From: Opitutales bacterium
Lineage (GTDB): Bacteria; Verrucomicrobiota; Verrucomicrobiia; Opitutales; PNEW01
Length of the DNA: 32,000 nt
Assembly: GCA_965219535.1 (NCBI GenBank)
Contig: CBDCNV010000002.1
Span: 240,001 to 272,000, forward strand
Direction: 5' to 3'
Below are positions 2,034 through 29,430 of the stretch, piece by piece. The notes under the pieces were generated by a model. That model was not told where the DNA came from. It saw nothing but the letters and a program-made list of their open reading frames with translations, and ran no database searches. Both the position numbers and the translations under genes were made by a program. Position 1 is the stretch's first letter. Every line of letters starts with the position of its first letter.

Positions 2034-5000
2034 TCATCGTAGTCCTCCTTCCATCCTTATCCTCGGATCGAGCCACATGAGGAGAAGATCGCTGACCAGG
2101 GTGCCAAAAACTCCCAGCATGCTGAGAATCATGAGCATCGAACCGGCTAAATACATATCTTCGGTCATCAGGGCTTCCAGCATCATTGGGCCCACGGTGG
2201 GCAGGCTTAAGACCATCGCCACGATCGCGCCTCCCGATACGAGCTGCGGAAATAAAATACCTATTCCCGAGATAAAGGGATTAAGCGCGATCCGTACCGG
2301 GTATTTCAAAAGCAGTTTAAACGGCCTGACCCCTTTAGCAAACGCGGTAACTACATAAGGTTTCTTCAATTCATCGAGTAAATTGCCACGCATCACCCGG
2401 ATCATGCTTGCAGTTCCCGTAATCCCCAGGACCACGACCGGCATCCAGAGATGTTGCATCAGGTCAACCACCTTGCCCCGGGTCCATTCCGGTTGGGTCG
2501 CGTACTCGGGTGAAAATAATCCTGACATGGTGATACCGAAATAAACGCTGCTCCAGTACATGAGTAATAACGCGAGGAGAAAGCTGGGCACGCACATCCC
2601 GATAAACCCGAGAAGGGTGAAAAAGTAATCACCGATCGAATACTGGCGCACCGCTGAATAAATACCGATGGGCAGAGCTACGGCCCAGGTAAACAGAACG
2701 GAGCCCAGTGAAATCAAAAAAGTCAGGAGGATGCGGTCGCCCACCACTTCATTTACGGGCTTTCGGTTTTGCATGGAAAAACCCATGTGCCCCTGCAGGA
2801 GCCCCTGGTCCGCTGGATCAAATGAGAGGAACCAGGGTAAGCCGAGCCAGTGAATATACTGGTATATGATCGATTCATCGAGGGGAAAGAGCTCACGCAG
2901 TTGTTCGGCTTCGGTTATGGCCGTTTGATCGTTAGTTAATTCGGCTTGTAGTATTTTCAAATCTACAAAATTACCCGGGGGCAATTGGATAATGGTGAAG
3001 ACGATGATCGATATGACGAGCAGGGTAGGCACCATGATGAGAAAACGCCTCCCGACATAAGGATGCTTTACTCCGACAAGAACCAGTCCGACGGCGATAC
3101 AACCGTAACATAATAGACGGATTAACCGGCTGAGGATTTCACCACTACTGAGGTCAGCATGTAATCGGTCAGTTGAATAGGGCGATGGCGCGATATCTGC
3201 CACCTCTCGTTTGATCTGCGCTATTGCGCCGGGGGAATCCTTCGGGTTTTTAAAAAAGAAGGTTTCGAATCCGCTACTGGATGGACTCTTATAAAGTGAG
3301 GCATAGATGGCTTTACGCGGCACGTTTCTAAAATCTTTCTTAACGATCAACACGCTGGGAGGTGATGTTGCAATATTGATATTCCAAAGATTTTCCGCCG
3401 CAATGTCCTGGATTTTATTATAAATATTTACCTGCTCCTCAAATGTGAGCGCGCTGTAAGCGGCATCAAGCAATTCCATGGACCTTCTCAGGGGGTGACC
3501 GATCGGGGGCTCAATGCGACCGGGTTTTTTCGACTCGGGGTCGCCGTATAGACCGCCATTTTGGTACCAGAGCGTGTAGCCTGAAGCTTCAATGTTTCCC
3601 GGAGAAAAACGATCAATTGAAACTAATGGATGATACTCACCCTCAACACCCCAGATGTGAAAATCCAATTTGCGGGCGGGCCGTTCTGCATTGAGAAGAT
3701 TCATGGACCGTACTCTTTCAATGGTATTTATGCCGACCTTTTTCCAGTCTTCTGCGACAAAAGAGGAGGGGCCTTCGCTGAAATTGGGAACCATGTTTAA
3801 ATACCATGCCATGCGGGTGCCGTCTTTAAAGGTGCGGAAGCCCTCCGAATCACGCCCGGTGAGTCCAATTTCATCGAATAGTTGATTGGCGCGTTCGGGG
3901 TTGTACTCGATATAACTTTTTTTTAACTTCTCATTGTAAAAGGGAGATTCTATCCCCGGTGAATTCTGTGACGGTTCTCCATATCCATGGTAAACCGCAT
4001 CGATGATATGCTGGCGATTAATGGCGAGGGAGAGAGCTTGGCGAAAACGCTTGTCGTTGAGCAATTCCCATTTATTACGGGTCTTCGGATCATTGGGATC
4101 CACGTAGCGATTGAGATTGGGGTATAATGTCCAGTCGGAACAGCCCGAAGCATACCAGTGGTAGACATCATAGTTCCCAGCATCACGCTGTGACATAAAC
4201 AGAGTATAATGAAAATAGTAGATATTAAACCCCTGCATCGTAATAGCCCCATTGGCCGCGGCAATGGGGACCAGTCTTTCCGTTTTTACGTCCATCATGA
4301 AACGGTCGACATAGGGCAACTGATTTCCCTGGGTGTCGACGGCCCAGTAATAGGGGTTGCGCACATAAGCCTGGGGAGGATTGGCTTTGTAAGTGCGGTA
4401 GATCCAGGGCCAGATGCGGGGGTGCTCCGGGTTGTTGACCAGCTTTAAGGTAATATAAAGAGCATCACTTTTGGTTATTTTATTTACCCTCATCATGGCT
4501 TCGATAAGATCGCTGTTCCCAAGTATGGGATGATAGGACTCCAGGTAGTGGCGGGGTGAGAAAAATTCAACGGTCGGAGCCAGGCGCTCAAGCAGCAATG
4601 AGTGAGAGACTGGAAAAATAAATTTCACGGTGTGAGAATCTACCATGATGATCTCTCCCTTTTTACCTCCCACTTTCATAAAAGAAGGAAACCCGATGAT
4701 CTCGTCTTTTACTTCGTGCTCCCACCAGTAGAGAATATCACCTGCGGTGAAAGGATGCCCATCGGACCACTTCATTCCCTTGCGAATGTAAAACGTCCAC
4801 TCCTTTTTATCAGGAGTGACGTCCCAGCGCTTCGCTATATGAGGGACAATGGGATACCCCATTGGCGACCACCGCACCAGGCAGGATCCGGACATCCAGG
4901 AGTCAATCGCCGTCAGGGTTTGTGGGCTGTTTGTCACCATGTTCCAGGTGCCCCCGTAATTTCCGATACCGTCAACCCCCTCGATGACCACGGGTTCAGG

Positions 5001-5318
5001 TCCCACCCGTTCCGCGACGGGGGGCAGTTTTCTCTCTTTAACCAGTTCCGCTAGAATCGGTGACTCATTTTTCGGGTACCATGCAGCGGACGGTCCCTCC
5101 GAGTAATCGACATCCCGCTGCACCGCGAATTGATCCTCTTCACTGAAAGTAAAATCCCAAAGCGCTTCATGTTCCCGCATTTTTTCCGGGGGGTAAACAA
5201 TCGGTTCCACTTCCAGTTCCGGCTTGGTCACACCCCCTCCGAAATAATAAAGACAGAAAATGAAAAGACCTGTTATGAATAAAATAAGAAATTTCGGAAA
5301 AATTACTTTTTTATTCAT
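2034..5318 (-). CDS. fused ABC importer component: family-5 (peptide/nickel-type) substrate-binding domain plus DppB/OppB-like permease domain
   Basis: Uninterrupted 1094-aa ORF. It has an N-terminal TM anchor and a ~600-aa SBP-like region. From about residue 745 the sequence is permease-like, starting RRFLIMVPTLLVISIIVFTIIQLPPGNF and ending LNPFISGIGILFPQLVSGGAIVAMVLSLPTVGPMM. Confidence 0.9.
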   Translation of the reverse strand: MNKKVIFPKFLILFITGLFIFCLYYFGGGVTKPELEVEPIVYPPEKMREHEALWDFTFSEEDQFAVQRDVDYSEGPSAAWYPKNESPILAELVKERKLPPVAERVGPEPVVIEGVDGIGNYGGTWNMVTNSPQTLTAIDSWMSGSCLVRWSPMGYPIVPHIAKRWDVTPDKKEWTFYIRKGMKWSDGHPFTAGDILYWWEHEVKDEIIGFPSFMKVGGKKGEIIMVDSHTVKFIFPVSHSLLLERLAPTVEFFSPRHYLESYHPILGNSDLIEAMMRVNKITKSDALYITLKLVNNPEHPRIWPWIYRTYKANPPQAYVRNPYYWAVDTQGNQLPYVDRFMMDVKTERLVPIAAANGAITMQGFNIYYFHYTLFMSQRDAGNYDVYHWYASGCSDWTLYPNLNRYVDPNDPKTRNKWELLNDKRFRQALSLAINRQHIIDAVYHGYGEPSQNSPGIESPFYNEKLKKSYIEYNPERANQLFDEIGLTGRDSEGFRTFKDGTRMAWYLNMVPNFSEGPSSFVAEDWKKVGINTIERVRSMNLLNAERPARKLDFHIWGVEGEYHPLVSIDRFSPGNIEASGYTLWYQNGGLYGDPESKKPGRIEPPIGHPLRRSMELLDAAYSALTFEEQVNIYNKIQDIAAENLWNINIATSPPSVLIVKKDFRNVPRKAIYASLYKSPSSSGFETFFFKNPKDSPGAIAQIKREVADIAPSPYSTDRLHADLSSGEILSRLIRLLCYGCIAVGLVLVGVKHPYVGRRFLIMVPTLLVISIIVFTIIQLPPGNFVDLKILQAELTNDQTAITEAEQLRELFPLDESIIYQYIHWLGLPWFLSFDPADQGLLQGHMGFSMQNRKPVNEVVGDRILLTFLISLGSVLFTWAVALPIGIYSAVRQYSIGDYFFTLLGFIGMCVPSFLLALLLMYWSSVYFGITMSGLFSPEYATQPEWTRGKVVDLMQHLWMPVVVLGITGTASMIRVMRGNLLDELKKPYVVTAFAKGVRPFKLLLKYPVRIALNPFISGIGILFPQLVSGGAIVAMVLSLPTVGPMMLEALMTEDMYLAGSMLMILSMLGVFGTLVSDLLLMWLDPRIRMEGGLR

Positions 5319-5863
5319 GGCACTTAATAATGCTAAAATTCCTGGTAAATGAGGAGAAAAGAATTATAGCCACAAGATGTACAAAAGGCACAAGATTTTA
5401 AACCACGAATTAAGACGAATATTTTTTAAAAGAGAAAAAATAGAGGCATAGCGTTCCACCTGATCTATCTCTTCCGCTTGCCACGCCATCCTGTCTGGCT
5501 ATAACCCTAGCGACGGATGAAGCTAGCTATGGCATAGGTGAGTTCTCACCCATTTTCTTGTTTCCCCACTTTCGACCTTCGGCTCCATCCTATTTCCCGT
5601 TCTTCCCGGACTTCCTGTAAATTTTTTTCTCTTAATCTCTATTCTGTGAAATTTGCCTACAGCCATAGCCTCGACGTCGGCTGGTGCCATATGTGGCTAT
5701 CCATTTCTTCTCGTTAGCTCCAGCTTCTTGTAAAATCTAATGCTTTCGACTTTTGAATTTCGACTTTCGGCTCCCTCGTACAATCATTTTTTGCATATAT
5801 GCGAATTAATACTTATTTAAATGATTTTTATTCTAAATATCATTAAAGCAAAGAAGGAGAACT

Positions 5864-6137: not shown

Positions 6138-7514
6138 CGGTACAACCAGGACATGGTTTACAGATTTAGATCAAGACATGGTTTACACTTTGTGAGGGAT
6201 GCTGAACGGTAATCGGGTTATATAGTTAAGTTAATGTTATGCGGTTTTAGAGGTTTGGCTGGCATTGTTGGGGCCGCAAGCGGCCCCAATGAAAGCAGCC
6301 GTTGAAAGGTCAATCTGACCGATTCTGAGAGTGGCAAAGTAAACATCGAAGTGTACCGTGTCTAGTGGTTTTAGTCCAACGCTCCAACCGGCGAGGGCGG
6401 TGGAGATAGGAATCTGGAAGCCATCGAGTTTGATAGACCCGCTTTTTGAGACCCGGCGAGTCATCAAATCATAGCTGATATCGGCAGGAGTGCCACCGTA
6501 AGGATGAGAGCTGTGCTGATAGATTTCAGAGGGCGTGCTCATGGCAAGAGCCGCATGGGGGCGTTCTTCATTGAAGGTCTTGCGCCACAGATCGAAGGCC
6601 ACCTGTTGGGTGCGAAGATCGTCCTGGGCATGTTTTTGCAACTCCTCTTTGATATCGCGATGGAGACGCTCATGGGCACCGTTATCCTGGGGTTTACCCG
6701 GACGTCCACGCTCGAGATTGATCCCTAAGGCCAGCCACCAGGCCGCCAGTTTGCTCAGGCCCAGGACCGCATTGGCACTGGCAAAGGGACTGCCGTTGTC
6801 GCTGCGGATGCAAGCGGGAAGTCCATAGCGTTCAAAGAGTTTTGTGAAGCATTCACGCACCGCTTCGCTACGGGCTGAACTGAGCACCCGCACCTCTAAT
6901 ACATAGCGGCTCCATTCATCCCGTACCGTCAAAGGTTCACAACGGTTGCCATCAACGGTGTGCCACCACCCTTTGAAGTCTACGCTCCACACTTCGTTAC
7001 AGCCACTGGCCTTGACGCTGCGGTAAAGGCGTCCGCTTTTTTGAGCGCTTCTGCGCCGACGCTTTTGCACCAGTCCCGCACGTTCCAAGACCCGTTTCAC
7101 GCTCGAGTCTGAGGGGGCCTTCCCGTAACGCCTCTGGTAAAGCTCGCGGATCTTGTAGGGGCCCCACGTCGGGTGATGATGCTTGAGTTTGATCAGCGTA
7201 CATACTACTGATTCGGATAGTTCCTGAACACTTCCATGCGGTCGGCGTGAGCGCTCGTGCAACCCCTCCATCCCTTCGCTCAGGAAGCGCTTCTTCCATT
7301 TATACCCTGTCGGTCGGCTGATCCCGTAGTCTTCACACAGCTCGTTCATCTTTACTCCCGGTTGCATCGATTCCAGGGCGAATTGGTATCTTTGGTCCAT
7401 TTTATTTGTTTCCTTCCATGACATCATACCCCTTACTTAGCATCCTTCTTTCTTTGGCAATCTGTAAAGGATGTCCTGAACCTTTTGTGTAAAGAATGTC
7501 TTGAACCTATACCG
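6138..7514 (-). mobile_element. IS481-family-like insertion sequence, apparently intact
   Basis: The ends are CGGTACAACCAGGACATGGTTTACA (6138-6162) and the reverse complement of TGTAAAGAATGTCTTGAACCTATACCG (7488-7514). Each end carries two copies of a TGTAAAnnATGTCyTG-type repeat (6147-6162 and 6172-6187; 7463-7482 and 7488-7507). GC content is visibly higher than the flanks. Confidence 0.7.
6237..7427 (-). CDS. DDE transposase (N-terminal HTH plus rve/integrase core), IS481-like
   Basis: 396 aa. HTH-like YGISRPTGYKWKKRF; core VWSVDFKG...IRSDNGSPF...GKPQDNGAHERLHRDIK...FNEERPH. Confidence 0.9.
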   Translation of the reverse strand: MMSWKETNKMDQRYQFALESMQPGVKMNELCEDYGISRPTGYKWKKRFLSEGMEGLHERSRRPHGSVQELSESVVCTLIKLKHHHPTWGPYKIRELYQRRYGKAPSDSSVKRVLERAGLVQKRRRRSAQKSGRLYRSVKASGCNEVWSVDFKGWWHTVDGNRCEPLTVRDEWSRYVLEVRVLSSARSEAVRECFTKLFERYGLPACIRSDNGSPFASANAVLGLSKLAAWWLALGINLERGRPGKPQDNGAHERLHRDIKEELQKHAQDDLRTQQVAFDLWRKTFNEERPHAALAMSTPSEIYQHSSHPYGGTPADISYDLMTRRVSKSGSIKLDGFQIPISTALAGWSVGLKPLDTVHFDVYFATLRIGQIDLSTAAFIGAACGPNNASQTSKTA

Positions 7515-7909
7515 ATTGAATTTACCCTCTCCTTTGACTTATAGCATTGTCACCTAAAACTCATGCGAGGTTTTAGTCTTGGTCGTGACCACGGAAACTG
7601 GGACAGTTGAAAAGTTAGTCTGGGTAACCTAAAAAGGACTCAGACAATGAAAGGCAAAAGATACACGACCGAAGAGAAGATAAGGATGCTGCGCCAGGCA
7701 GACAAAGGGAAAACGATCCTGGAAGCATGCCGCGAGAACAACATAAGCGAACAGAGCTTCCACCGCTGGAAGCGTGAGTTTGGGATGATTGATGTCAACC
7801 AAGCCAAGCGGATGAAGGAGCTCGAGAAGGAGAACGCGCGGCTAAAACGGATGCTCGCAGACAAGCTGCTGGGGATAGAGATTGTGCAGGAGACCCTCGA
7901 AAAAAATGG

Positions 7910-7932
7910 AAGATGTCGCTTACGCTCGGTAG
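7910..7932 (+). repeat. 23-nt micro-insertion (GAAGATGTCGCTTACGCTCGGTA type)
   Basis: It is absent from the homologous site in copy B (aaaaaaatgg^tgagc versus aaaaaaatgg[23 nt]taagc). The boundary is ambiguous by 1 nt. Confidence 0.7.
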
Positions 7933-8363
7933 TAAGCGCTGGGCACAAGCGGCAAGTGGCAAAGAGCCTTGTGGCTGAGGGCCAGTGTACGATGCGTGCA
8001 GCGTGCCGATACTTTCACCTGCACCGTTGCCCCTATGCGTATCGGGCCAAGCATCCGGATGCTTGGCTAACGAAACTGAAGGGGGCAGTAAGACGGTTAT
8101 CACGGCAATACGCCAGTTGGGGCTATCCGAAGATCACGAAGTTATTCAAGCACGAAGGCTGGCAAGTAGGTAAACGGCTCGTACAAGGTCTGCGAGGTGA
8201 ACTGGGCCTAGCGATGACCCCACGCAAACGAAGACGCCGGCGCCGGGGTGTCTGCACCGGGCAGCAGAGGAAGGGCGAAGATACCGGCCAGGTTTGGAGC
8301 TGGGATTTTATCCGCGATAAGATGGTTGGCGGTGGCAGTTTAAAATGCTGCCCGTGCTCGATG

Positions 8364-8408
8364 TACCGAGGAGCTGAAAGCGACGACACTCGAGCGAAGC
8401 GAAGACAT
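8364..8408 (+). repeat. 45-nt micro-insertion in OrfB of IS3 copy A
   Basis: TACCGAGGAGCTGAAAGCGACGACACTCGAGCGAAGCGAAGACAT. It is 44/45 identical to 10873-10917. Removing it restores LD-DPREC. Confidence 0.75.
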
Positions 8409-8534
8409 ACCCCCGCGAGTGTCGTGTGATCCATGTTGATCGCTATAGCAATGAGGAAACGGAGCGCGGTATCATGCAAAAACTGATCGACCGGCATGGG
8501 CCTCCACAATATATGAGTAGCGACAATGGATCGG

Positions 8535-8565
8535 TTCCGAGGAGCGAAGCGACGACATGCGAAGC
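8535..8565 (+). repeat. about 31-nt related micro-insertion in OrfB of copy A (boundaries uncertain)
   Basis: TTCCGAGGAGCGAAGCGACGACATGCGAAGC interrupts SDNGS|..|FIQSELRASLAAMKIKTLYIQP. The downstream transposase frame is shifted. Confidence 0.5.
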
Positions 8566-8609
8566 CATTTATTCAAAGCGAATTGCGAGCTTCGCTGGCT
8601 GCGATGAAA

Positions 8610-9838
8610 TGTACTAGCTACGACTTGATCTTACAGGTTACGCTGTGAGGAAGTATAAAATGTCAGCTAGCTATTGGTTCTTCATTGTCCTGGTTAAGGT
8701 GATCAACTTTTTGCGTTCAAAGCACCTTGTCCTCAAGGAAGGTCTGCATGGGGGTAGGCCCACAGCACATTTTACCCTGGTGAGTGCGTTCATGGTTATA
8801 GTGATACAGCCACTCGTCGAGATCTTTTTGTAACTGCCCTAAAGCACGGTAGATCTTCTTACGGAAGGTTACCTGATAAAACTCCTGGAGCACCGTTTTG
8901 TGGAAGCGCTCACAGATGCCATTGGTCTGGGGATGCTTCGCTTTGGTTTTGGTGTGATCAATATTATTGATCGCCAGATACAGCTCGTAAGGGTGACTGT
9001 AATGGCGTCCGCAATACTCGGTTCCACGATCGGTAAGCACCCGCAACAGTTCCATCGCGTGTTGCTCGAAAAAGGGCAAGACCTGATCGTTAAGCAACTC
9101 TGCGGCGGTGAGCGGGGTTTTCATCGTATACAACTTCGCGCAAGCCACTTTCGCATAAGTGTCGAGGAAGGTTTGCTGATAGATGCGTCCGACCCCTTTA
9201 AGCGTGCCAACATAGAAGGTATCCTGGGCACCCAGATAGCCGGGATGGGCGGTCTCAATCTCCCCGTGCAACTGATCACGCTCTTTCTTCTTCTGCAGGG
9301 CCGCCAACTGCCTCTCGGTTAAGACCAGCCCTTCTTCGGCCACTTTCTTTTCCAAGGCCTTCAACCGCAACGGGAAGGTTTGCAATTGATGGCTGATCCA
9401 CACACAACGCACTCCGGCCGGTGAGATCGCCAACCCCTCTTTCCTCAGTTCGTTGGCCACCCGCTGTTGTCCCAGCGCCGGGTTCTCCATCGCGAGCGTG
9501 ACCACCCGCTTTTCAATGCTCTCGTCAACGCGGTTTTTGAGGTTCGACTGGCTGCGACTTTTATCCAGCAGATTCTCGATTCCCCCGTCCTCGACCGCCG
9601 CTTTATACCGCTAAAAGGTATCGCCACTGAAGCCCATCACCTGACAGGCTTTTGAAACGTTGCCTGGCTCTTCAGCTAAATTTAATAATCCTACTTTATT
9701 TCTGATCATTTTTGCGTTTATTCTCATTGGGGTTACTCCTGTTTGGGGCAGCCCCCTAGGGGGCTGTTGTTGTTGTTTAACTTCCCACACAGAGTAACCC
9801 TTCTCTTGCTTCTGTCAGATCTTATCGTTACTAGTACA
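8610..9838 (-). mobile_element. IS481-family-like insertion sequence number 2, inserted into IS3 copy A
   Basis: Terminal inverted repeats are TGTACTAGCTACGA (8610-8623) and the reverse complement of TCGTTACTAGTACA (9825-9838). A perfect 7-bp direct repeat, GATGAAA, flanks it (8603-8609 and 9839-9845). Joining the flanks restores AAMKIKTLYIQP. Confidence 0.85.
8717..9727 (-). pseudogene. IS481-like transposase with one in-frame TAG (9611-9613)
   Basis: ATG at 9727, preceded by AGGAG. The reading is MRINAKMIRNKVGLLNLAEEPGNVSKACQVMGFSGDTF*RYKAAVEDGG..., which joins the 262-aa ORF (TDRGTEYCG...HPQTNGICERFH...YNHERTHQG). The stop sits where a Tyr (TAT) is expected. Confidence 0.85.
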
Positions 9839-10089
9839 GATGAAAATCAAAACCCTCTATATACAACCAGCAAGCCCTTGGCAGTACCGAGCGTTAGCGA
9901 CATCTTCCATGGATTCGTTGAGTCGTTTCATGCCCGTTTTCGCGAGCAGTGTTTAAACCGTCAACAGCTATGCACTTTAACCGAAGCAGGTGTGGTGATC
10001 GAAGATTGGTGCTGGCTTTACAATCATGTCCGTGCCCACTGCAGCCTCGGCAATTTCAGCCCACGCCACTTCGCTTTAAACATTTGGAG
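9839..10089 (+). mobile_element. IS3 copy A, 3' fragment, truncated where copy B begins
   Basis: It encodes IKTLYIQPASPWQ[insert]HGFVESFHARFREQCLNRQ...YNHVRAHCSLGNFSPRHFA. No copy-A right inverted repeat was found. Confidence 0.7.
9885..9907 (-). repeat. 23-nt micro-insertion, inverted relative to 7910-7932
   Basis: TACCGAGCGTTAGCGACATCTTC. Its reverse complement matches the 7909-7931 copy at 22 of 23 positions. Removing it restores PWQ-HGF. Confidence 0.7.
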
Positions 10090-10335
10090 TGACCCCCAAA
10101 AATCGTATCATTTACAGAGAGAGGTTATCGGGATAAACAGATAACCTCAATGAAAAGAAAAAGATACACAACAGAACAGATTATAACAATATTGCGGCAA
10201 GCCGATACCGGTAAAACGGTACAGGAAATCTGCCGTGGAAACAACCTGAGCGAACAGACTTTCTATCGCTGGCGTAAAAAATATGGCAATTTAGAACTTG
10301 CCGATGCGAAGCGATTTAAAGAGCTGGAAAAAGAA

Positions 10336-10362
10336 TTCACGAGCGCAAGCGAGAAGGCCTGA
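10336..10362 (+). repeat. about 27-nt related micro-insertion in OrfA of copy B (boundaries uncertain)
   Basis: TTCACGAGCGCAAGCGAGAAGGCCTGA is absent from the homologous KELEKENARLK site in copy A. Its length is a multiple of 3. Confidence 0.55.
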
Positions 10363-10430
10363 CATACCGAGCTGAAGAAGCTGCTCGCAGATCAAATGCT
10401 CAAGAATCAGGTAATGGAGGAAACGCTGTC

Positions 10431-10437
10431 AAAAAAA
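10431..10437 (+). promoter_or_regulatory. A7 slippery heptamer for -1 programmed frameshifting (OrfA to OrfB)
   Basis: tcAAAAAAAtgg. OrfB (MVSPKQKK...) is open in the -1 frame from 10437. This is the classic IS3-family arrangement. Confidence 0.6.
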
Positions 10438-11402
10438 TGGTGAGCCCAAAGCAGAAGAAACGAGTAGTAAAAGCTGCGGCTGAGAAAGGGTTGTGCTCGT
10501 TGCGGAGGGCTTGTGCTTATCTCAGCCTGAGTTGGTCAACGTTCAGTTACCGGCCCAAACAGGCCAGTGAGAAAGCTCAGCGGTTGGTCGAGCGGATTGT
10601 GAGCTTGTCCTGGAAACATCCCCGCTACGGTTACCGGCGCATCCGTGCCTTGCTGGTAAAGGAAGGCTGGACAACAAGCAGGAAGTTTGTCCAGGCGGTA
10701 CGACGTTCAGAAGGGCTGCAGGTAAAGCCCCCGAAAAAGGGCAGACACCGTCAAGGAGTCTCTACGGGGTCACCTACTAAAGCAAAGGGTCGCAATCACG
10801 TTTGGTCCTGGGACTTTGTCCATGATCGTACAGACAACGGCGGTCCATTAAAGATGATGACTCTAATCGATGTACCGAGGAGCTGAAAGCGACGACACTC
10901 AAGCGAAGCGAAGACATATACGCGTAAATGCCTGGATATCCGGGTCGCTCGTCAACTCACCTCAACCGATGTCCTCTCTGTGCTTAGCGAGGCCATTGAA
11001 GAGGAGGGACCTCCCAGCTATATCCGTAGTGACAACGGCAGTGAGTTCATTGCTCATCAAGTGCAGCAGTGGTTGTCCGGTAATAACATAAAGGCGATCT
11101 ATATCGATCCGGGCAGTCCCTGGCAAAACGGTTTCATCGAGTCGTTTCACAACCGCTTACGCGATGAGTGTTTGAACCGTGAAGTGTTGCTCAGCGTGGC
11201 TGAAGCGCAAGTGGTAATCGAACAATGGCGTCAGACCTATAACCATGAACATCCCCACAGTCGTTTAGGCTTCAAAAGCCCACAAGAGTTTGTCAGATTC
11301 CTTTCCGATCTTGGCCGCGTTCGGGCTACGCCCTCACTTCGCCAAGATCTCTCATATACATCAATCCTAAAACCATTAACACCCGGTAACTCTCTCACTT
11401 AA
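10437..11402 (+). pseudogene. IS3 copy B OrfB (DDE/rve), interrupted by the in-frame 45-nt insertion
   Basis: The 10437..10886 and 10980..11402 ORFs share one frame. VWSWDF...LKMMTLID[15 codons with TGA]DTRKCLDIRVAR...IRSDNGSEF...PGSPWQNGFIESFH...YNHEHPH. Confidence 0.8.
10873..10917 (+). repeat. 45-nt micro-insertion in OrfB of IS3 copy B
   Basis: TACCGAGGAGCTGAAAGCGACGACACTCAAGCGAAGCGAAGACAT, at the same position (after CGATG) as in copy A. Confidence 0.75.
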
Positions 11403-13204: not shown

Positions 13205-13280
13205 CCTAACCGCTTAATCGCATTCACGCTTTATCGCTTTATCGCTTTATCGCATCCACACGTTATCGCATCCACGCGTT
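13205..13280. repeat. ATCGC-rich dispersed/tandem repeat tract
   Basis: (CGCTTTAT)x3 at 13228-13251, then a (CGCATCCACrCGTTAT)-type unit twice. The tract is homologous to the reverse complement of 23812-23870. It abuts the RND stop codon. Confidence 0.6.
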
Positions 13281-20154: not shown

Positions 20155-20285
20155 CGACACCTTCAAACGCGCTAGGGACAGCGCGTTCCACCCATTTTAA
20201 AATATTCAAAGATCATTTGTTTGAATTTATGATAATTTGGTGGAGCGGGCTGTCCCTAGCACGCTTTCTTTACTCAAAAGTGTCG
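20155..20285. repeat. about 130-bp imperfect palindrome (MITE-like or structured RNA)
   Basis: Arm CGACACCTTCAAACGCGCTAGGGACAGCGCGTTCCACC (20155-20192) pairs with GGTGGAGCGGGCTGTCCCTAGCACGC...CTCAAAAGTGTCG (20238-20285). Each arm has its own hairpin (CGCGCT-AGGGAC-AGCGCG). An inner ATTCAAA/TTTGAAT pair is also present. Confidence 0.5.
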
Positions 20286-20509: not shown

Positions 20510-22606
20510 ATGAACAGAAACCGTATCGTAGTATTTGTATTTCTAATCCTTTACACGCTGGGTAGTGGTTTAAGGGCTGAGCCGGTTCGCGACCATTACG
20601 TCGAAGCTGAACTCATTTCCGAGTACACTTCCCTTCAACCGGGGCACGTTTTTACCGTCGCATTAAAACTTAAGCATGATGAAGGCTGGCATACATACTG
20701 GAAGAATCCCGGCGATGCGGGCCTTCCCACGGAAATAAACTGGGAGCTCCCCGACGGTTTTAACGCCGGAGCGATCCATTGGCCAACACCTCGTCAGCTT
20801 CCTTTCCAAGGAGGTATAAATTACGGTTATGAAGGCACGGTTTTACTCCTCGTCGATATTGCTGCACCGGAAAATTTAATCGGAGATGAAGTGCGAATCG
20901 CCGCGCGTGTAAACTGGTTGATGTGCGAGGAGGTCTGCATACCGGGTGAAGCCGATTTATCGCTTCTCGTCTCGGTGAATAGAAATTCACCGGAGATCGA
21001 TGTGAGAGAGAAGGAAAATTTTACAAGAACACGTCAGCGATTGCCCCGCGAACTTTCCGCATGGAAGGTAAATGCCTTTTTAGAAGAGGAGCAAGTATCC
21101 CTGTCAATTGCCCCAGAAGCAGACGTTCAAGCTAATATTACCGCCGTCTATTTCTATTCCGAAGATGCGCAGATTGATGCTAACGCTTCACAGTTACTGA
21201 GACAAACTGATGACGGTTATTCGTTGACCTTAACCCGAGCAAGCGATGCTGAAGAAACTTCTCTCAGATTGCCCGGGGTACTTTACAGTAAGGATGGTTG
21301 GCTCGCGGACGGCGATGTCACGGCAATGCGTATTGCTCCCAATTTAATACCTGGGGCTCCACCCCTATCCGGGGTAGTCGTCACCTCGGATATATCGATG
21401 TCAGGTATCAGCAGTTTTTTTGCGATCATCGGCCTGGCTTTTATCGGTGGATTGATACTTAACTTCATGCCCTGTGTTTTCCCGATTCTCGGCCTCAAGG
21501 TTATGGGCTTTGTTAAACAGGCAGGTGAAGATCGCCGGAAAGTAACGCTGCATGGATTAATTTTTACCCTTGGCGTTCTTGTATCCTTTTGGATATTGAC
21601 CGGCATTCTTATCGCGTTGCGAGCCGGTGGCGAGGAACTGGGCTGGGGCTTTCAATTGCAATCACCCGCTTTTGTCTTCGCGCTCACTGTAGTATTATTC
21701 ATCTTCGCCCTGAATTTAAGTGGACTGTTTGAAGTTGGCGGATCAGCCATCGGTATCGGAAGCAAGTTGACCGCAATGTCAGGACCGGCAGGTTCTTTTT
21801 TCACAGGTGTACTCGCTACGATAGTGGCAACTCCTTGCGCGGCACCTTTCCTCGCCCCCGCGCTTGGCGCAGCGCTGACACTTTCAGCTCTCGAATCCTT
21901 GATCGTATTTACCTCAATTGCCCTCGGTCTTTCACTACCCTACCTTTTGCTCTCGATTTTTCCAGAAATGGTGAAGCTTCTTCCGCGCCCCGGTGCCTGG
22001 ATGGAATCATTTAAACAGTTGCTCGCCTTCCCGCTCTATGCAACGACCGGTTATCTCTTATGGGTATTGGGTGGGCAGATTGATGAATTCCATTTTCTTT
22101 GCGCTATATTAGGGCTTGTTTTTATCGCAATGGCGGCATGGGTTTATGGTCGATGGTCCATACCTGCCAGAAGATCAGTTGTGCGCCGTTGGTCACGGGT
22201 GGGCACAATTGCACTCTTCATTCTTGGTTTATATATTGGTTACCCTTTAGAAAAGACATCGCGTATAATATGGGAATCGTGGTCACCAGAAAAAGTGATC
22301 GCTTTACTGGCTGAGGAGCGCCCGGTATATGTTGATTTTACGGCGCGATGGTGTGCCACTTGCCAAACAAATAAAGCCACTGTCTTTTCCTCTGATGCGG
22401 TAGTTAATAGAATGCGCGAAAAAGATGTTGTCGCTCTTAAAGCGGACTGGACGCTCTTCGATCCGCTAATAACAAATGCCCTCGCAAGTTACGGTCGTTC
22501 CGCCGTTCCCTTCAATATAATTTACAATCCAAAACAGAGTGAACCAATCATTCTTCCAGAATTGCTTACCCCGGGCATTGTCCTTGACGCGCTCGATAAA
22601 CTATAA
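20510..22606 (+). CDS. dsbD: DsbD-family protein-disulfide reductase (N-terminal DsbD-alpha/ScsB-like domain, CcdA-type membrane core, C-terminal thioredoxin)
   Basis: 698 aa with a signal peptide. N-domain Cys pair WLMCEEVCIPGE. Membrane Cys residues in FMPCVFPIL and ATPCAAPFL. C-terminal WCATCQ (CxxC). Confidence 0.9.
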   Translation: MNRNRIVVFVFLILYTLGSGLRAEPVRDHYVEAELISEYTSLQPGHVFTVALKLKHDEGWHTYWKNPGDAGLPTEINWELPDGFNAGAIHWPTPRQLPFQGGINYGYEGTVLLLVDIAAPENLIGDEVRIAARVNWLMCEEVCIPGEADLSLLVSVNRNSPEIDVREKENFTRTRQRLPRELSAWKVNAFLEEEQVSLSIAPEADVQANITAVYFYSEDAQIDANASQLLRQTDDGYSLTLTRASDAEETSLRLPGVLYSKDGWLADGDVTAMRIAPNLIPGAPPLSGVVVTSDISMSGISSFFAIIGLAFIGGLILNFMPCVFPILGLKVMGFVKQAGEDRRKVTLHGLIFTLGVLVSFWILTGILIALRAGGEELGWGFQLQSPAFVFALTVVLFIFALNLSGLFEVGGSAIGIGSKLTAMSGPAGSFFTGVLATIVATPCAAPFLAPALGAALTLSALESLIVFTSIALGLSLPYLLLSIFPEMVKLLPRPGAWMESFKQLLAFPLYATTGYLLWVLGGQIDEFHFLCAILGLVFIAMAAWVYGRWSIPARRSVVRRWSRVGTIALFILGLYIGYPLEKTSRIIWESWSPEKVIALLAEERPVYVDFTARWCATCQTNKATVFSSDAVVNRMREKDVVALKADWTLFDPLITNALASYGRSAVPFNIIYNPKQSEPIILPELLTPGIVLDALDKL

Positions 22607-22618
22607 ATAGGGATTCGT

Positions 22619-23698
22619 TTAATAGGGCTGCTCTTGCATCCAGTTAATGGGTTCCCCTAATCGCTGCAAAATAAACGCTGTCCCAACCTCTATTAGCACT
22701 GATCCCGATGGATTGAGTTCACGGTCTACCCAGCCCCCCGATAATTCTGAATAGTGATACCCTTCTAATAACCCGTCTCGCGAAAGGATCATAATTCTAT
22801 CGGCAAGCTCTAATGAATCATTCTCTTTTATTCCCGAGTTTTCATCGCCCGTAAAGAGCCCGGAATCTTCCAGCGAGTAAGCAATTGGATATACGTTCGC
22901 AATGAGATTGCGGCCGGCCTCAATGGGAATTGAGGTGGTCCCAGTCTTAACGTTCCCGAATAACTTTACCGGGAGGTCTGTATTATTTAAGCGATGAACG
23001 ATAATTCCCTGATCGGGATAAAGAATAGTATCCCCACTGGGAATACCTTCTGTATCTACCCATCCTGTGTTTGATGAATAAAAAAAGATCTGTGATAATT
23101 GCGCGACCGGATTGTATAGAATAATCTTATCAGCAATTGATAAAGTGTCCTCCTCTTCCAGACCCGCTTCATTTTTACTTCCAAATACTGAAGCTATCGT
23201 GTGGTGCTTCCGAATTCTAACCCCGTCACCAATTGCGATTAATGATGATATATCCTGGACGAGAATGATCGTGTTAAGCGTAGATTCGACTATATCAACG
23301 ATCACCCCTGGATTTGGGCTCGTCTGATCCGCAATATCTATAATTTCAAGAAAATACCGTGCGTCAAATTGAAGGTTCTGAAAAGGTTCACCGGGAAAAG
23401 TTAATTGTGTAACTGAAATAGTCCCTCCCTCCAGGATGAGGGATGTTTCATTTATGCCGGAGATTACATTTTGAAATTCGACGGCATTGTATAGTCCCAG
23501 CCCGATCAGATTAAAAGCAGGCGAAGACATTTCATTTCCAGCTATATTTAAAGTGATAAACCCCTGAGGATCCGTGCACGCGCCAGCCGAGTTACTCGTA
23601 TTAGCCGCGGATGTCTGACCAGAAGCGTATAGGGTGATGGCGATCCCTAACCACCGGTAAAGCTTATACCAGTTTTCTATTTCGCGATATGATTTCAT
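22619..23698 (-). CDS. secreted protein with internal repeats, unknown function
   Basis: 359 aa with a signal-like N-terminus (WLGIAITLYASGQTSAA). Repeated modules: SIADKIILYNP...GWVDTEGIPSGDTILYPDQGIIVHRL and ELADRIMILSR...GWVDRELNPSGSVLIEVGTAFILQRL. Confidence 0.7.
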   Translation of the reverse strand: MKSYREIENWYKLYRWLGIAITLYASGQTSAANTSNSAGACTDPQGFITLNIAGNEMSSPAFNLIGLGLYNAVEFQNVISGINETSLILEGGTISVTQLTFPGEPFQNLQFDARYFLEIIDIADQTSPNPGVIVDIVESTLNTIILVQDISSLIAIGDGVRIRKHHTIASVFGSKNEAGLEEEDTLSIADKIILYNPVAQLSQIFFYSSNTGWVDTEGIPSGDTILYPDQGIIVHRLNNTDLPVKLFGNVKTGTTSIPIEAGRNLIANVYPIAYSLEDSGLFTGDENSGIKENDSLELADRIMILSRDGLLEGYHYSELSGGWVDRELNPSGSVLIEVGTAFILQRLGEPINWMQEQPY

Positions 23699-23811
23699 CT
23701 TCTGATTAATGCGAACAATGTTCGTTTAATTTGAAACGTAAAATCTTAAATCGTTCCCCTGAAACGACAATTGAATATTCTAAACTGTCTCAACGCTTAG
23801 GCAATTATAAT

Positions 23812-23870
23812 TGCGATGATGCGTGCATGCGATAAAGAGAATATGCGATTAAGCGGTAATGCGAAAATTG
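23812..23870. repeat. ATCGC-rich repeat, inverted copy of the 13205-13280 tract
   Basis: The reverse complement reads CATTACCGCTTAATCGCATATTCTCTTTATCGCATGCACGCATCATCGCAAT. Compare CCTAACCGCTTAATCGCATTCACGCTTTATCGC...ATCCACACGTTATCGCA. Confidence 0.55.
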
Positions 23871-23871
23871 C

Positions 23872-24126
23872 CCCTCTTGTCATTGCGAGGAACATAGAGA
23901 CAAAGCAATCCAGGGGTATTTCAATACGTGACCGTCATTCCCTTGTAATAGATGATGTGGCTGCGCAACCGAGGAGTGACATATACCATAAGTACAAGAG
24001 CGAAACATCTTATGAATATCCCAACATCCATTGATTTACTTTACACACCCGGCTTTCCCCTGGAATGGAAGATGTCGCTGCGCTCGGTAGCCGCGTCGCA
24101 TTGCTCCTCGCAATGACAATATGAGG
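23872..24126 (+). mobile_element. MITE-like element, copy 1
   Basis: Terminal inverted repeats are CCTCTTGTCATTGCGAGG and CCTCGCAATGACAA(TAT)GAGG. It aligns along its length with 29020-29256. It carries a nested 22-nt insertion. Confidence 0.7.
24068..24089 (+). repeat. 22-nt micro-insertion nested in MITE copy 1
   Basis: GAAGATGTCGCTGCGCTCGGTA. MITE copy 2 lacks it (cccctgga^ttgccgcgtc). It matches the 23-mers at 7910 and 9885 apart from the centre. Confidence 0.65.
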
Positions 24127-24200
24127 AATATAAAGATGAGAATTATAAATGATACCCGTTAGGCTCAATCCGCATTCAGCAATCCGACATCCGCAATTCT

Positions 24201-24551
24201 TCAGATTTTCACTCCCGCCTTATTGAGAAAAAATACCATGGTGAAATAAAGAAGAATCATTAAGAGAGTTGATATCCCCAAGCTGAAATAAAAATTAATT
24301 TCTTTTTTTAATAATAGAGGAAGCAAAAGAAAAAGAGACAAAGAGGGGATCACTAACCAGAAGATACCGGTAGAAAGTCCAGCCACTTTCTCGACATTGG
24401 CAGTATCGACGTAAAGCCAGATCATCGCCAGGTAAGATGTCAGGGGTAGTGAAGCGAGTAAGCTTCCCATGAACGAACTTCGCTTTGCGATTTCGGATAT
24501 GAGTATCACCAGGGTTGTGGTGATTAAGATTTTAGTTATATAATAAGCCAT
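24201..24551 (-). CDS. DUF3147-like small membrane protein
   Basis: 116 aa with four hydrophobic segments. SEIAKRS...LASLPL...IWLYVDT...IFWLVIPSL resembles DUF3147 as I remember it. Confidence 0.7.
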   Translation of the reverse strand: MAYYITKILITTTLVILISEIAKRSSFMGSLLASLPLTSYLAMIWLYVDTANVEKVAGLSTGIFWLVIPSLSLFLLLPLLLKKEINFYFSLGISTLLMILLYFTMVFFLNKAGVKI

Positions 24552-24755
24552 AGCTTCTTAATTTGATGCGGTTAATTGGTATGCTAAATGGTCTATGATT
24601 CTATCATTACTCACCAGCTAGAATTCTATGTATAATTAAATTAATGGGCCTCAATTAAAATATTGAGTGTAATGGTTCTTTAGAGAATTACTTTAGATCA
24701 TTTTTTTGATAGCTACTTACGTATTTTTATGCCCATCTTCATCTATCAATCAGCA

Positions 24756-25928
24756 TTATTCCTGTAATAAATCAAGATAGGGATTAAACCGGAAAATTCG
24801 AAATTTTCTACCAGGAGTAACTTGTTCCAATAAACCCAAATGAACATATAAGTCTACTAGCTTGTTTGCTGTAGCATAAGAGCATCCCAAAGTGTCTTTA
24901 GCTTCATTGACGGTGATAAATCCTTTTAAAAATAAAGAGTCCAACAATAGGTGAGCTAAGCCGGAATTAATATCATTTTTGAGTAAAAGATTTTTAAGAT
25001 CCCGGTGAAGGATTAATATTTTTTTTGCTGTTTCAGTTGCTGAATTACTGACTTCAATCACCCCTTTAAGAAAAAACTTTAACCAATCTTCCCATCGCCC
25101 TAAATCTCGAATTCCCATTAGTTTATCATAATACTCGAGTTTATGTTTTTTCAGGTAATGGCTCAGATAAAGCAATGGTCGTTGCAGAATACCTCTCTCA
25201 CACAGAAGTAGAGTTATAATCAATCGGCCAATACGACCATTCCCATCCAAGAATGGATGGATGGTTTCAAATTGCGCATGAGCCAATCCACAAAAAATTA
25301 GCGAGGGCATATTACGGTCTGTGTTTATAAATTTTTCAAAAGCGTCCAACGATTGATGCATTTCCTCAACTGGAGGTGGGACAAAGGTTGCTGAGGAAAT
25401 TGTTGCGCCTTCAGGGCCTATAAAATTTTGCCACTTACGAAATTCTCCAGGTGACTTCTCTGAACCCCTAACTCCAGTTAGTAACTTTTCATGAATCTCA
25501 CGTATGAGTCTAAGACATACCGGTAGTTCATTAAGTCGATTCAACCCATGGTTTATCGCATGAACGTAATTTACAACTTCTTCAACATCTTTAGGTTTTC
25601 GCCTTTTCGACCCTATTTCATACTCTAAAACATCTTCCAATGTGCTTTGAGTGCCTTCGATTTGGGAACTAAGCACTGCTTCCTGACGTACATACATGGC
25701 AACAAAAATGTCAGGATTGGGAATAACATCTGCCACACCATCCAGCCTTCCCAACTTGATATTAGCCTCAGAAAGTAATTGATTTAACTCATCATCAAAC
25801 AGCAATGAAGGTTCAGGAGGGAGAGGATTTGGGATAAATGCAGTGAACTTCTGTTTACCGACCGCACTCTGCACATAACGCCCTGATCTGTTATCTTTTA
25901 TATTATACTCTTCTACCATTTGATTCAA
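24756..25928 (-). CDS. fic: Fic-family protein (class II, with N-terminal inhibitory helix; C-terminal wHTH-like region)
   Basis: 390 aa. Fic motif HPFLDGNGRIGR. Inhibitory [S/T]xxxE[G/N] motif as SSQIEG upstream. The gene is visibly low in GC. Confidence 0.95.
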   Translation of the reverse strand: MNQMVEEYNIKDNRSGRYVQSAVGKQKFTAFIPNPLPPEPSLLFDDELNQLLSEANIKLGRLDGVADVIPNPDIFVAMYVRQEAVLSSQIEGTQSTLEDVLEYEIGSKRRKPKDVEEVVNYVHAINHGLNRLNELPVCLRLIREIHEKLLTGVRGSEKSPGEFRKWQNFIGPEGATISSATFVPPPVEEMHQSLDAFEKFINTDRNMPSLIFCGLAHAQFETIHPFLDGNGRIGRLIITLLLCERGILQRPLLYLSHYLKKHKLEYYDKLMGIRDLGRWEDWLKFFLKGVIEVSNSATETAKKILILHRDLKNLLLKNDINSGLAHLLLDSLFLKGFITVNEAKDTLGCSYATANKLVDLYVHLGLLEQVTPGRKFRIFRFNPYLDLLQE

Positions 25929-25935
25929 AATTAAG

Positions 25936-25975
25936 ATTTATATTATAGTATAATAGAAATTTTTATAATATAAAT
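25936..25975. promoter_or_regulatory. 12-bp perfect inverted repeat in the AT-rich region just upstream of fic
   Basis: ATTTATATTATA (25936-25947) and TATAATATAAAT (25964-25975), 8 nt from the fic start. It contains TATAAT-like hexamers. Confidence 0.35.
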
Positions 25976-26251
25976 GCAATTTTTATTTACATTATATATT
26001 CTTTTAATATAAACCCTCCTTTTCTCTATTATGAAAATCGCATAAACCTGATAATAAATTATTCTTTAAAAGACCCGTGGTCTTCTAAATATTACCCCAT
26101 TGAAAGTGTTCCAACCTCGGCTGATAAATGTCTATAATTCGCCCATCTACCCGAAATGAGGTAAAAATTATGGAAGTTTTGCCCCTTCTTATACAAAACT
26201 CTTAAACCGGAAGGCGAACGGTAAATGACCGCATTTTTTAGCAGGAAAAGA

Positions 26252-28330: not shown

Positions 28331-28362
28331 CGATAAACCTACTTATTCATCGTCGTCCAGAT

Positions 28363-28863
28363 TCAAGCCGCGGCATGATGTGGATTTGTCTTTTTATCGA
28401 AGCGGGTGGTAAAACTTATTACTTTGGGTTCAACCACTTGCGCAAAGTCTTTATAATTCATCTTTATAATTTCAGTATGAGAGCCGGCATTAAATGCAAT
28501 CTCTTCATCTTCGGCTAAACTTTTCGCGACAAAGACCTCCATGTTATAAAGATTCCCAAAAGGTGGCATCGCGCCCAATTCACAATCGGGAAAGATTTCT
28601 AATAATTCACTTTCAGGGGCGAGAAAAACATCGCCGCCACCCAGTGCAATCATCAAGCGATTAAAGTTTATATTATAATTGGCCGGCAGAACGGCCATGA
28701 CCATTTTACCGTTTACATTTACGAGAACTGTTTTAGCCATTTCCTTCCCTGGGATATGGACCAATGCCGCTACTTCCTGCGCGCTATAAGCGAGGGAGTG
28801 GCTGAGCACCACATATTTGATATGGTTGCTGTCTAGATATTCTCTCAATTTTTTTAGTACCAT
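28363..28863 (-). CDS. YbaK/ProX-family aminoacyl-tRNA deacylase-like protein
   Basis: 166 aa. ...GKEMAKTVLV...GAMPPFGNLY...IAFNAGSHTE pattern typical of the tRNA_edit domain. It lies 32 nt upstream of the EF-G paralogue on the same strand. Confidence 0.8.
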   Translation of the reverse strand: MVLKKLREYLDSNHIKYVVLSHSLAYSAQEVAALVHIPGKEMAKTVLVNVNGKMVMAVLPANYNINFNRLMIALGGGDVFLAPESELLEIFPDCELGAMPPFGNLYNMEVFVAKSLAEDEEIAFNAGSHTEIIKMNYKDFAQVVEPKVISFTTRFDKKTNPHHAAA

Positions 28864-28921
28864 TCTTTCTTTATTTTAGAGATTATTAACGAAAACCCGC
28901 CATTAATTTTGGTGACAATAG

Positions 28922-28953: not shown

Positions 28954-29019
28954 AGTTGTAAAAAAATGTCAAGCTCCCTCTTAAAAACACCCGAAATCAA
29001 CCCCTATTTTTCACTTTTC

Positions 29020-29426: not shown

Positions 29427-29430
29427 ATAA

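Follow-up and report, generated by a model that had tools for sequence, protein, structure and literature searches.

A 32,000-nucleotide (nt) stretch of an Opitutales chromosome (assembly GCA_965219535.1, contig CBDCNV010000002.1, positions 240,001 to 272,000; below, the window) carries a 23-nt micro-element in three places, within insertion sequences (IS) of the IS3 family and within a dimer of repetitive extragenic palindromic (REP) sequences. This 23-mer is very probably a member of a lineage-specific family of small dispersed repeats, 24-45 nt long, that contain a hairpin and insert secondarily into other sequences. As to how the family spreads, the best overall explanation, to which we give an even chance, is a small-repeat family specific to the Opitutales lineage that inserts secondarily and is perhaps moved in trans as a folded single-stranded DNA (ssDNA) hairpin.

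A search of the window with the pattern GAAGATGTCGCTNACGCTCGGTA, that is GAAGATGTCGCT[T/A]ACGCTCGGTA, gave exact 23-nt matches at 7909-7931 on the plus strand and at 9885-9907 on the minus strand. The chance expectation is 0.00 matches, and none of 100 dinucleotide-preserving shuffles contained any. A fuzzy search added a 22-nt variant, GAAGATGTCGCTGCGCTCGGTA, at 24068-24089 on the plus strand, which differs from the 23-mer by one substitution and one deletion. These are the three copies, in the same orientations, that a preliminary description of this DNA had reported, except that the first had been placed at 7909-7932 and thus ran one base too far. ATG directly precedes all three, as the description had also said. 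Its role as a simple target is not supported, as the TG of the ATG lies within the unit (TGGAAG...) and is preceded in different copies by A, T or G. Both exact matches are in the first of two adjoining IS3-family elements (7580-11400), copies A and B, and the variant is in the first of two REP dimers labeled 'MITE 1' and 'MITE 2' (MITE stands for miniature inverted-repeat transposable element). The carriers are listed here, a slash in a sequence marking a junction, as throughout the text.

7580 to 8609, plus strand: left part of IS3-family copy A, with the OrfA start at 7647 and the A7 frameshift window at 7900-7909
8610 to 9838, minus strand: rve-type IS nested inside copy A; its terminal inverted repeats start TGTACTAG and its own transposase contains a stop
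9839 to 10084, plus strand: right part of IS3 copy A, the C-terminal rve region
10085 to 11400, plus strand: IS3-family copy B, about 75% identical to copy A; canonical A_AAA_AAA -1 site at 10431-10437
23877 to 24124: 'MITE 1', two TGTC-tagged REPs (TGTC-ATTGC...GCAAT-CCA) joined tail to tail; carries micro-element copy 3 and, at about 23946-23990, a second, degenerate copy
29024 to 29254: 'MITE 2', of the same REP-dimer family; empty right arm CCCCTGGA/TTGCCGCG and internal palindrome TGGATGATATCG...CGACATCTTCCA at about 29100-29146

The nested IS is flanked by a target duplication, GATGAAA, at 8603-8609 and 9839-9845. Within these carriers lie the three micro-element copies, together with four related micro-insertions in the IS3 elements that were absent from the preliminary description. 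Loci of other genomes are given as L numbers.

7907 to 7931, plus strand: micro-element copy 1, a-type, 25 nt (TGGAAGATGTCGCTTACGCTCGGTA); opposite-strand centre GCGTAAGC; directly 3' of the A7 run of IS3 copy A
8364 to 8407, plus strand: compound micro-insertion, 44 nt (TACCGAGGAGCTGAAAGCGACGACACTCGAGCGAAGCGAAGACA), at the LIDE/YTR site of IS3 copy A, with an in-frame TGA
8535 to 8567, plus strand: b-type micro-insertion, 33 nt (TTCCGAGGAGCGAAGCGACGACATGCGAAGCCA); it has a pair of GCGAAGC mini-hairpins and follows the SDNGS motif in IS3 copy A
9885 to 9909, minus strand: micro-element copy 2, a-type, 25 nt; reads TACCGAGCGTTAGCGACATCTTCCA on the plus strand, with the centre GCGTTAGC
10336 to 10364, plus strand: micro-insertion, 29 nt (TTCACGAGCGCAAGCGAGAAGGCCTGACA), containing GCGCAAGC; in OrfA of IS3 copy B, where it brings in a stop
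10883 to 10926, plus strand: compound micro-insertion, 44 nt, in IS3 copy B at the site equivalent to 8364-8407 of copy A; also present in L004
24066 to 24089, plus strand: micro-element copy 3, a-type, 24 nt; opposite-strand centre GCGCAGC

Copy 2 breaks the conserved PWQ/NG motif of the copy A transposase, and in 'MITE 1' copy 3 interrupts the stem (A/TT/GCC) of the TGTC-tagged REP arm on the right. The whole window has 43 occurrences of GCGN(N)AGC versus 25±5 in shuffles, and 14 of the 43 are within 7688-11331. Rfam has no family at any of the micro-element sites. Degenerate or palindromic derivatives of the micro-element are also seen inside both REP dimers, at about 23946-23990 and about 29100-29146. 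In the palindromic derivative, TGGATGATATCG-TCATGCAGCCGTGGGG-CGACATCTTCCA, the 5' arm stands opposite its own reverse complement.

Comparison with homologues that lack the motif confirms, at the level of sequence, that both IS3 23-mers are insertions. IS3 copy B is empty at both sites (AAAAAAATG/GTGAGC and CCCTGGCAA/AACGG), and another Opitutales genome (L032) has an uninterrupted homologue of copy A, 86% identical, that lacks the 23-mers, the 44-nt insert and the nested IS. Outgroup IS3 homologues are likewise empty at both sites. The earlier view of a dispersed tiny element, inserted independently and in both orientations, is borne out by the empty homologues in copy B and L032. It had been extended to all three sites, and at 'MITE 1' a fresh insertion is not supported. 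There, 'MITE 2' does have a 23-nt gap where 'MITE 1' is filled (CCCCTGGA/TT/GCCGCG). In related genomes 123 TCGCAATGAC-like matches were examined, many of them not true arms, and 37 have the REP-dimer site filled, usually in only one of the two arms of a dimer. As the position is occupied in most of the family members sampled from other genomes, the 'MITE 1' copy was largely inherited with its carrier. In L027 two REP arms with identical 15-nt flanks differ by exactly 23 nt.

The related micro-insertions, too, are present in one homologue and absent from another, and five presence/absence differences separate window copy B from the B-like element in L004. The 29-nt unit at 10336-10364 (net +27 nt) is found in window copy B and is missing from the L004 element. 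Conversely, L004 alone has a 33-nt unit after SDNGS (the site at which copy A and L032 also carry a b-type insert), a 42-nt unit of a different variant at PWQ/NG, 2 nt from the site of copy 2, and a 37-nt unit at RDE/C. The 44-nt inserts of copies A and B are identical at 41 of 42 compared positions.

Several target sites were used more than once. Among about nine events in IS3 elements four sites were hit repeatedly: the frameshift window (copy A and L034), PWQ/NG (copy A and L004), and the LIDE and SDNGS sites (A and B lineages). The frameshift-window hit in L034, gccaaaaaatg/GAAGATGTCGCTAGCGCTCGGTA/gtaaagcc, gives a positive answer to the check, proposed in the preliminary description, of whether other IS3 copies carry the unit at this position. 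L034 belongs to a different IS3 subgroup, its OrfA being about 44% identical to that of copy A at the protein level with DNA similarity confined to the insert, and an L034-type homologue in L004 lacks the insert. In eight filled/empty pairs there was zero target duplication and 1-4 target bases were lost. On the strand that reads TGG...GTA the unit replaces a YT dinucleotide in the rough context R/YT/S, which is a moderate preference, and bases adjoining the junction are occasionally substituted. The empty sites read as follows.

AAAA/CT/GTAAGC; CCG/TT/CTGCC; GGA/TT/GCC; GTA/CT/CATCG
ACA/CT/CATCG; GAA/CT/CACTG; GTA/TT/CTCC; GG/TT/CAG

Of four junction models none accounts for all eight pairs. 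They were insertion of the IS608 type 3' of a fixed tetranucleotide, a 2-bp core of the serine-recombinase kind, a CT core on both sides of the IS110 type, and ATGG/GGTA microhomology.

The preliminary description had tied its finding to the existence of further copies, and these were found. We scanned one genome per species (185,579 species genomes, a collection to which the window's own genome does not belong) with the exact pattern and obtained 59 loci. About 50 of these are in metagenome-assembled genomes of Opitutales/Puniceicoccaceae, and the remainder, from other phyla, are chance matches in coding sequence. About 18 loci are in the complete chromosome OY829953.1, that of a close relative (its locus L003 is syntenic with window positions 21881-31804 at 93-99% identity), and 19 are in CBDANS01. 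A relaxed scan of the fetched DNA (ATGTC[AG]-N-[CT]TCGG[TA]A) gave 102 units with centres of 5, 6, 9, 11 and 16 nt. A metagenome scan with GGAAGATGTCGN{3,22}CTCGGTA, an overly loose pattern, gave at least 120 loci; among the matches listed nearly all were chance coding matches, the true members being L081, L107, L130 and L166. Units reside in IS3 elements, REP dimers, tandem arrays and intergenic DNA. In OY829953.1 their orientations are mixed with respect to replichore and strand, which carries no information, as most copies there are carried by REP dimers. Our literature search found no description of this family.

Alignment of the units gives an architecture of fixed arms about a variable mini-hairpin, 5'-(W)TGGAAGATGTC-[G-stem-loop-stem-C]-TCGGTA-3'. 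The top strand of the element is TACCGAGCGNAGCGACATCTTCCA, and the complementary strand reads TACCGA-[GCGNAGC or GCGNNAGC]-GACATCTTCCA. The arms (12 + 7 nt) are conserved in more than 70 copies from several genomes, with constant element boundaries; the two arms, TGGAAGATGTCG and CTCGGTA, do not form inverted repeats. Longer relatives have hairpins of 9-16 nt or two mini-hairpins (the b-type and compound forms). Stems of the centres covary, as in GGC-TAC-GCC, GAC-TTC-GTC, AGC-TTT-GCT and CGT-TTC-ACG, and in xCCCGCAGTTGCGGGx. In the nine-nt centres (n=14), 87.5% of cells are paired versus 76% in shuffles, a value reached by 0 of 500, and 37-66% with slid pairing. Seven cells are changed on both sides, and three of the four pairs show such double changes.

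The centres of all three window copies (GCGTAAGC, GCGTTAGC and GCGCAGC) fit GCGNAGC or GCGNNAGC, the sequences known as 'extraordinarily stable mini-hairpin DNA' (PMC13037366). Most centres of the Opitutales family also fit (GCGCAGC 22, GCGAAGC 14 and GCGTAGC 7 times; also GCGCAAGC, GCGCTAGC and GCGGAGC). Published melting temperatures (Tm) of the hairpin-forming sequences are 71.5 °C for GCGTAAGC, 69.5 °C for GCGTTAGC, 72 °C for GCGCAAGC and 76.5 °C for GCGAAGC, and GNA triloops are a stable motif specific to DNA (PMC13037366).

Copy 1 has a consequence for its carrier. The open reading frame (ORF) at 7647..8429 reads straight through it as ...ETLEKNGRCRLRSVVSAGHKRQ, joining OrfA to OrfB, just as first described. 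The arithmetic offered for this, that 23 nt equals a -1 shift, was mistaken, as a -1 ribosomal slip corresponds to +1 nt and +23 nt to +2. Counted from the ATG of OrfA, the distance to OrfB's first codon is 263 nt (-1 frame) in copy B once its 27-nt net insert is removed, and 263 nt in L032 once an upstream 1-nt indel is corrected. The same distance in copy A is 285 nt (263+22), in frame; minus the insert it is 262 nt, in the +1 frame. The canonical slippery sites read tca aaa aaa tgg tga in copy B and gaa aaa aaa ctg taa in L032, and the A run is A7 in copy A versus A8 in L032. Hence, read-through in copy A requires both the insertion and the loss of one base. In L034, where the insertion alone occurred at a canonical site, OrfB is in the +1 frame and stops follow soon in all frames.

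The copy A fusion is a real ORF, and an incidental by-product of the +23 insertion and the 1-nt loss in a dying IS. It is extremely unlikely that the insertion functionally replaces programmed -1 frameshifting to give a constitutive OrfAB transposase. Such a role would accord with the continuous ORF and its HTH_Tnp_1 and HTH_21 domains, and the compensating loss from the A run could reflect selection in an IS that needs OrfAB. However, these two are the sole Pfam domains of ORF 7647-8429, which ends at 8429, and the rve domain of copy A is destroyed by the 44-nt insert with its stop (8364-8407), the 33-nt insert (8535-8567), the second 23-mer (9885-9909) and the nested 1.2-kb IS (8610-9838). 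As noted, the insertion alone gave the +1 frame in L034. Moreover, no second copy of the A7 plus 23-mer junction was found in the 185,579 species genomes, and an exact-protein look-up of the fused ORF returned no record. Functional mimicry of frameshifting, as first proposed, has no support.

Among known repeats the closest analogue seems to be the small dispersed repeats (SDRs) of Nostocaceae, with CGTC- and GTAG-type REPs also near. The SDRs described by Elhai and colleagues in 2008 (Genome Res 18:1484) are reportedly units of 21-27 nt with a hairpin that shows compensatory changes, found in heptamer arrays and mini-transposons and nested in one another. The micro-element resembles them in having 24-25-nt units in many unrelated contexts (about 50 loci), a hairpin with compensatory changes (from the small sample of 14), and a presence in tandem arrays and REP-dimer arms as well as compound 44-nt and double-hairpin 33-nt forms. 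Both insert into otherwise conserved sequence, both are confined to a single clade, and for neither has a mobilising agent been identified. The likeness is one of described properties. The micro-element differs in its host (Verrucomicrobiota versus Cyanobacteria), in its GCGNAGC or GCGNNAGC DNA mini-hairpin core between 12- and 7-nt arms, and in its clear recurrent hits in IS3 coding sequences with small target deletions. As its host is an Opitutales bacterium, the micro-element is at best an analogue of SDRs, which have not been found outside Nostocaceae (PMC5861425).

The arms of the window 'MITEs' fit well into the superfamily of CGTC/TGTC-tagged REPs (Di Nocera et al. 2013, PMC3733652), which includes Rickettsia RPE-4 and RPE-6 and Neisseria dRS3. 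The carrier arms at 23877-23914 and 24053-24124 have the stem, loop and CCA tail of these REPs. Di Nocera et al. reported no CGTC REPs in Verrucomicrobia (PMC3733652), and we found no description of them there in the literature. The micro-element itself is, judged by its sequence, structurally related to the TGTC-tagged arms of its carrier, yet its stem and tail fall outside the superfamily. Features in common with these REPs are the short length, a hairpin whose stem has TGTC on its 5' side, a CCA end, the ability to sit in ORFs and the lack of a known dedicated transposase. In the b-type unit 17 of 20 nt are those of a window REP arm. Unlike them, it has a stem of 2-4 bp (maximum 6) closed by G-C rather than 8-9 bp with an A-T start, a loop of 3-4 rather than 4-5 nt, a TCGGTA tail, and its CCA on the other strand. 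TGTC directly precedes the micro-element hairpin (GA-TGTC-GCTNCGC) and 7 conserved nt lie upstream of it, so that the TGTC is internal rather than terminal.

GTAG REPs and the REPIN sequences associated with REP-associated tyrosine transposases (RAYTs) offer a further parallel. Their REP units are 20-40 nt and are recognised as ssDNA hairpins (PMC3116915, PMC8266576), RAYTs cut at CT, the micro-element target loses CT or TT, and RAYT-like genes are present in host genomes. The micro-element differs in lacking the GTAG tag, in not forming inverted doublets and in its junction geometry. Since the base after ...GGTA varies (G, C, A), a GTAG in the micro-element arises by context only. Opitutus terrae is rich in GTAG REPs, including intragenic ones (PMC3116915, PMC8266576). 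In the window, 20165-20266 is a REPIN-like inverted doublet of a different REP, AAACGCGCTAGGGACAGCGCGTTCCACC ... GGTGGAGCGGGCTGTCCCTAGCACGCTT, which also flanks the 147-aa Y1_Tnp/RAYT-like gene of L017. Bacterial MITEs share with the micro-element a non-coding, dispersed nature and insertion into other repeats, whereas they have terminal inverted repeats, target-site duplications and lengths of 70-300 bp; the micro-element lacks both and is three to ten times smaller. With the mini-hairpin DNAs d(GCGAAGC) and d(GCGAAAGC) of Hirao and co-workers (PMC13037366) the match is one of motif. Every a-type centre fits their consensus and both octamers of the window 23-mers are in the published Tm table, but the motif is known as a physico-chemical one at phage and plasmid origins and promoters, not as a dispersed repeat family (PMC13037366).

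The comparisons show that units have entered tolerant sequence, namely IS3 copies in decay, stems within TGTC-tagged REP dimers, and tandem arrays of short repeats. In the favoured explanation the non-autonomous unit would be recognised as a folded ssDNA hairpin, and a host- or IS-encoded enzyme would mobilise it in trans, as proposed for REP/REPIN sequences with RAYT (HUH-Y1) enzymes. We put forward this last step, mobilisation of folded ssDNA by an HUH enzyme, only tentatively. A tblastn search followed by Pfam found Y1_Tnp/RAYT-like genes in OY829953.1 (L017, 7114-7557, 147 aa; L023, 6650-7630, 326 aa), the queries being sequences of IS608, IS200 and the E. coli RAYT. TnpAREP acts on 23-nt ssDNA hairpins and cuts hairpin-adjacent CT dinucleotides (PMC8266576). 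Several observations weigh against the favoured explanation. No enzyme is linked to the micro-element: neither the L017 nor the L023 Y1_Tnp gene is flanked by it, the L017 gene being flanked by a different, GTAG-type REP, GGTGGAGCGGGCTGTCCCTAGCGCGCTT, and the L023 gene by neither repeat. The junctions are unlike those of IS200/IS605-type chemistry, with no constant 5' flank, the loss of 1-4 bases and substitutions nearby. Because the REP-dimer copies are largely inherited, truly independent insertion events number only about 10-12, and among the compared genomes there is no orthologous filled/empty pair at an IS3 site at >95% identity. The covariation is based on just 14 related sequences. Finally, nearest-neighbour DNA folding of nine units found the 24-25-mers not significantly stable (z about 0-1), although such models miss the stability of GNA mini-hairpins (PMC13037366).

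Imprecise junctions, with no target duplication, 1-4 bases lost and substitutions beside the junction, are typical of illegitimate joining. They would suit capture by repair or template switching, in which host repair, without a dedicated transposase, would copy or ligate nuclease-resistant mini-hairpin fragments, or nascent strands that stalled at mini-hairpins, into breaks or replication forks. Mini-hairpins are indeed nuclease-resistant and stall polymerases (PMC13037366), and the failure to find a linked enzyme is in keeping with this route. We nevertheless consider it unlikely, as the conserved arms, the fixed boundaries and the few sites hit repeatedly in diverged IS3 elements favour specific recognition over random capture. 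Constant arms with a junction between them that varies in length and sequence could also mean that the units are excision footprints of a larger transposon, the arms being its termini. This seems scarcely credible, given that the centre, far from random filler, is a hairpin structure whose stems covary, and that a search of about 490 kb of Opitutales DNA found no long element, and hence no autonomous parent, bounded by TGGAAGATGTCG and CTCGGTA.

Two further routes dispense with a DNA transposase acting on the unit itself. Spread through RNA has been proposed for Nostocaceae SDRs, a short structured transcript being reverse-transcribed and inserted, and the parallel with the properties reported for SDRs is close: size, a hairpin with compensatory changes, embedding in heptamer arrays and in mini-transposons, nested copies and restriction to one clade. 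Loops of the GNRA-like kind (GCGTAAGC, GCGCAAGC) are stable tetraloops in RNA as well. Against this, there is no reverse transcriptase in the window or the sampled loci and no poly-A or other signature of retro-insertion, GNA triloops are stable specifically in DNA, and unit orientation is unrelated to neighbouring genes. Hence, an RNA route seems quite improbable. Units without mobility of their own, spread by their carriers (REP dimers and IS3) and by gene conversion among paralogues, would account for the presence of most copies at one fixed position of one REP-dimer family. They would also account for the near identity of the 44-nt inserts in the neighbouring copies A and B, whose identity is otherwise about 75%, and for the L004 b-type insert with A-like flanking bases (GAAGCCATT). 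We regard this as very unlikely, as the frameshift-window insertion recurs in IS3 elements too divergent for conversion, the flanks of the copy A 44-nt insert are A-like up to the junction, and copies also lie in unrelated intergenic and tandem-repeat contexts. A bolder version of the favoured explanation, which is conjectural and probably goes too far, is that the units are Opitutales 'nano-transposons'. They would be an independently evolved second lineage of 24-25-nt site-selective units, built around a GNA/GNNA DNA mini-hairpin and moved by an enzyme that recognises the folded single strand, with a preference for disrupting IS3 elements (including frameshift windows) and REP stems.

The spread of very short repeats such as SDRs, CGTC-type REPs and Rickettsia RPEs is a long-standing question, no enzyme having been tied to them. 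The micro-element provides handles in its sharp arms, its characterised mini-hairpin core, its filled and empty sites in diverged paralogues and its recurrent targets, and several hosts with complete long-read genomes carry dozens of copies. If the 'nano-transposon' proposal were true, the units would, outside Nostocaceae, be the smallest mobile DNA, and they would offer a tractable way to learn how SDR-like and 'orphan' CGTC-type repeats move. For annotation, inserts of 23-45 nt make and break reading frames and can imitate 'fusions' or frameshift bypass in IS elements, and dead IS copies act as sinks that record micro-element activity.

The rest of the window is that of a bacterial chromosome, with an AcrB/HlyD/OEP efflux operon, DsbD, EF-G, a Fic gene and a 5S/23S rRNA operon. 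A further rve-type IS, IS481-like and with an intact 396-aa ORF, is at 6237-7427 on the minus strand. Both this IS and the nested IS (8610-9838) lack the micro-element, which suggests that these two elements came in later than the decay of the IS3 copies. 'MITE 2', which lies beside the 5S rRNA gene, is missing at the orthologous site in L003 (OY829953.1), and the surroundings of 'MITE 1' are rearranged between the window and that chromosome. The inner hairpins of the TGTC-tagged REP dimers vary between copies (window 23877-24124 and 29024-29254; L003 5445-5616). A 1.7-kb segment at 24533-26247 with a Fic/DOC-family gene (24756-25928) is absent from L003, which is otherwise syntenic and 93-99% identical, and is a strain-specific islet.

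Short intergenic tandem arrays of 6-8-nt units (CTTTCGA, CGCTTTAT, CATCCTG and CAATCCG) are present at 5743-5769, 13211-13277 and 29308-29388. Arrays in relatives (L008, L018, L026, L051, L081 and L166), of the types (CGATCC/CGATAG)n and (GGTTCAG)n, often carry micro-element units, and such 6-8-nt arrays are reminiscent of the cyanobacterial STRR heptamers. In two hexamer-array copies (L018, 889-960, and L059, 1780-1845 on the minus strand) the unit and its flank together give TTGGAA-N17-TACGAT, which resembles a sigma-70-type promoter and lies some 30 nt upstream of an ATG. A promoter function was rejected, as the orientation to the next gene is inconsistent. Elsewhere in the window a '23S rRNA-intervening sequence protein' family gene (PF05635) stands alone at 1593-1991 on the plus strand, far from the rRNA operon (29431-32000). 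The 1094-aa ORF at 2034-5318 on the minus strand combines SBP_bac_5 (family-5 extracellular solute-binding) and BPD_transp_1 (ABC permease) domains in one polypeptide, an unusual fusion.

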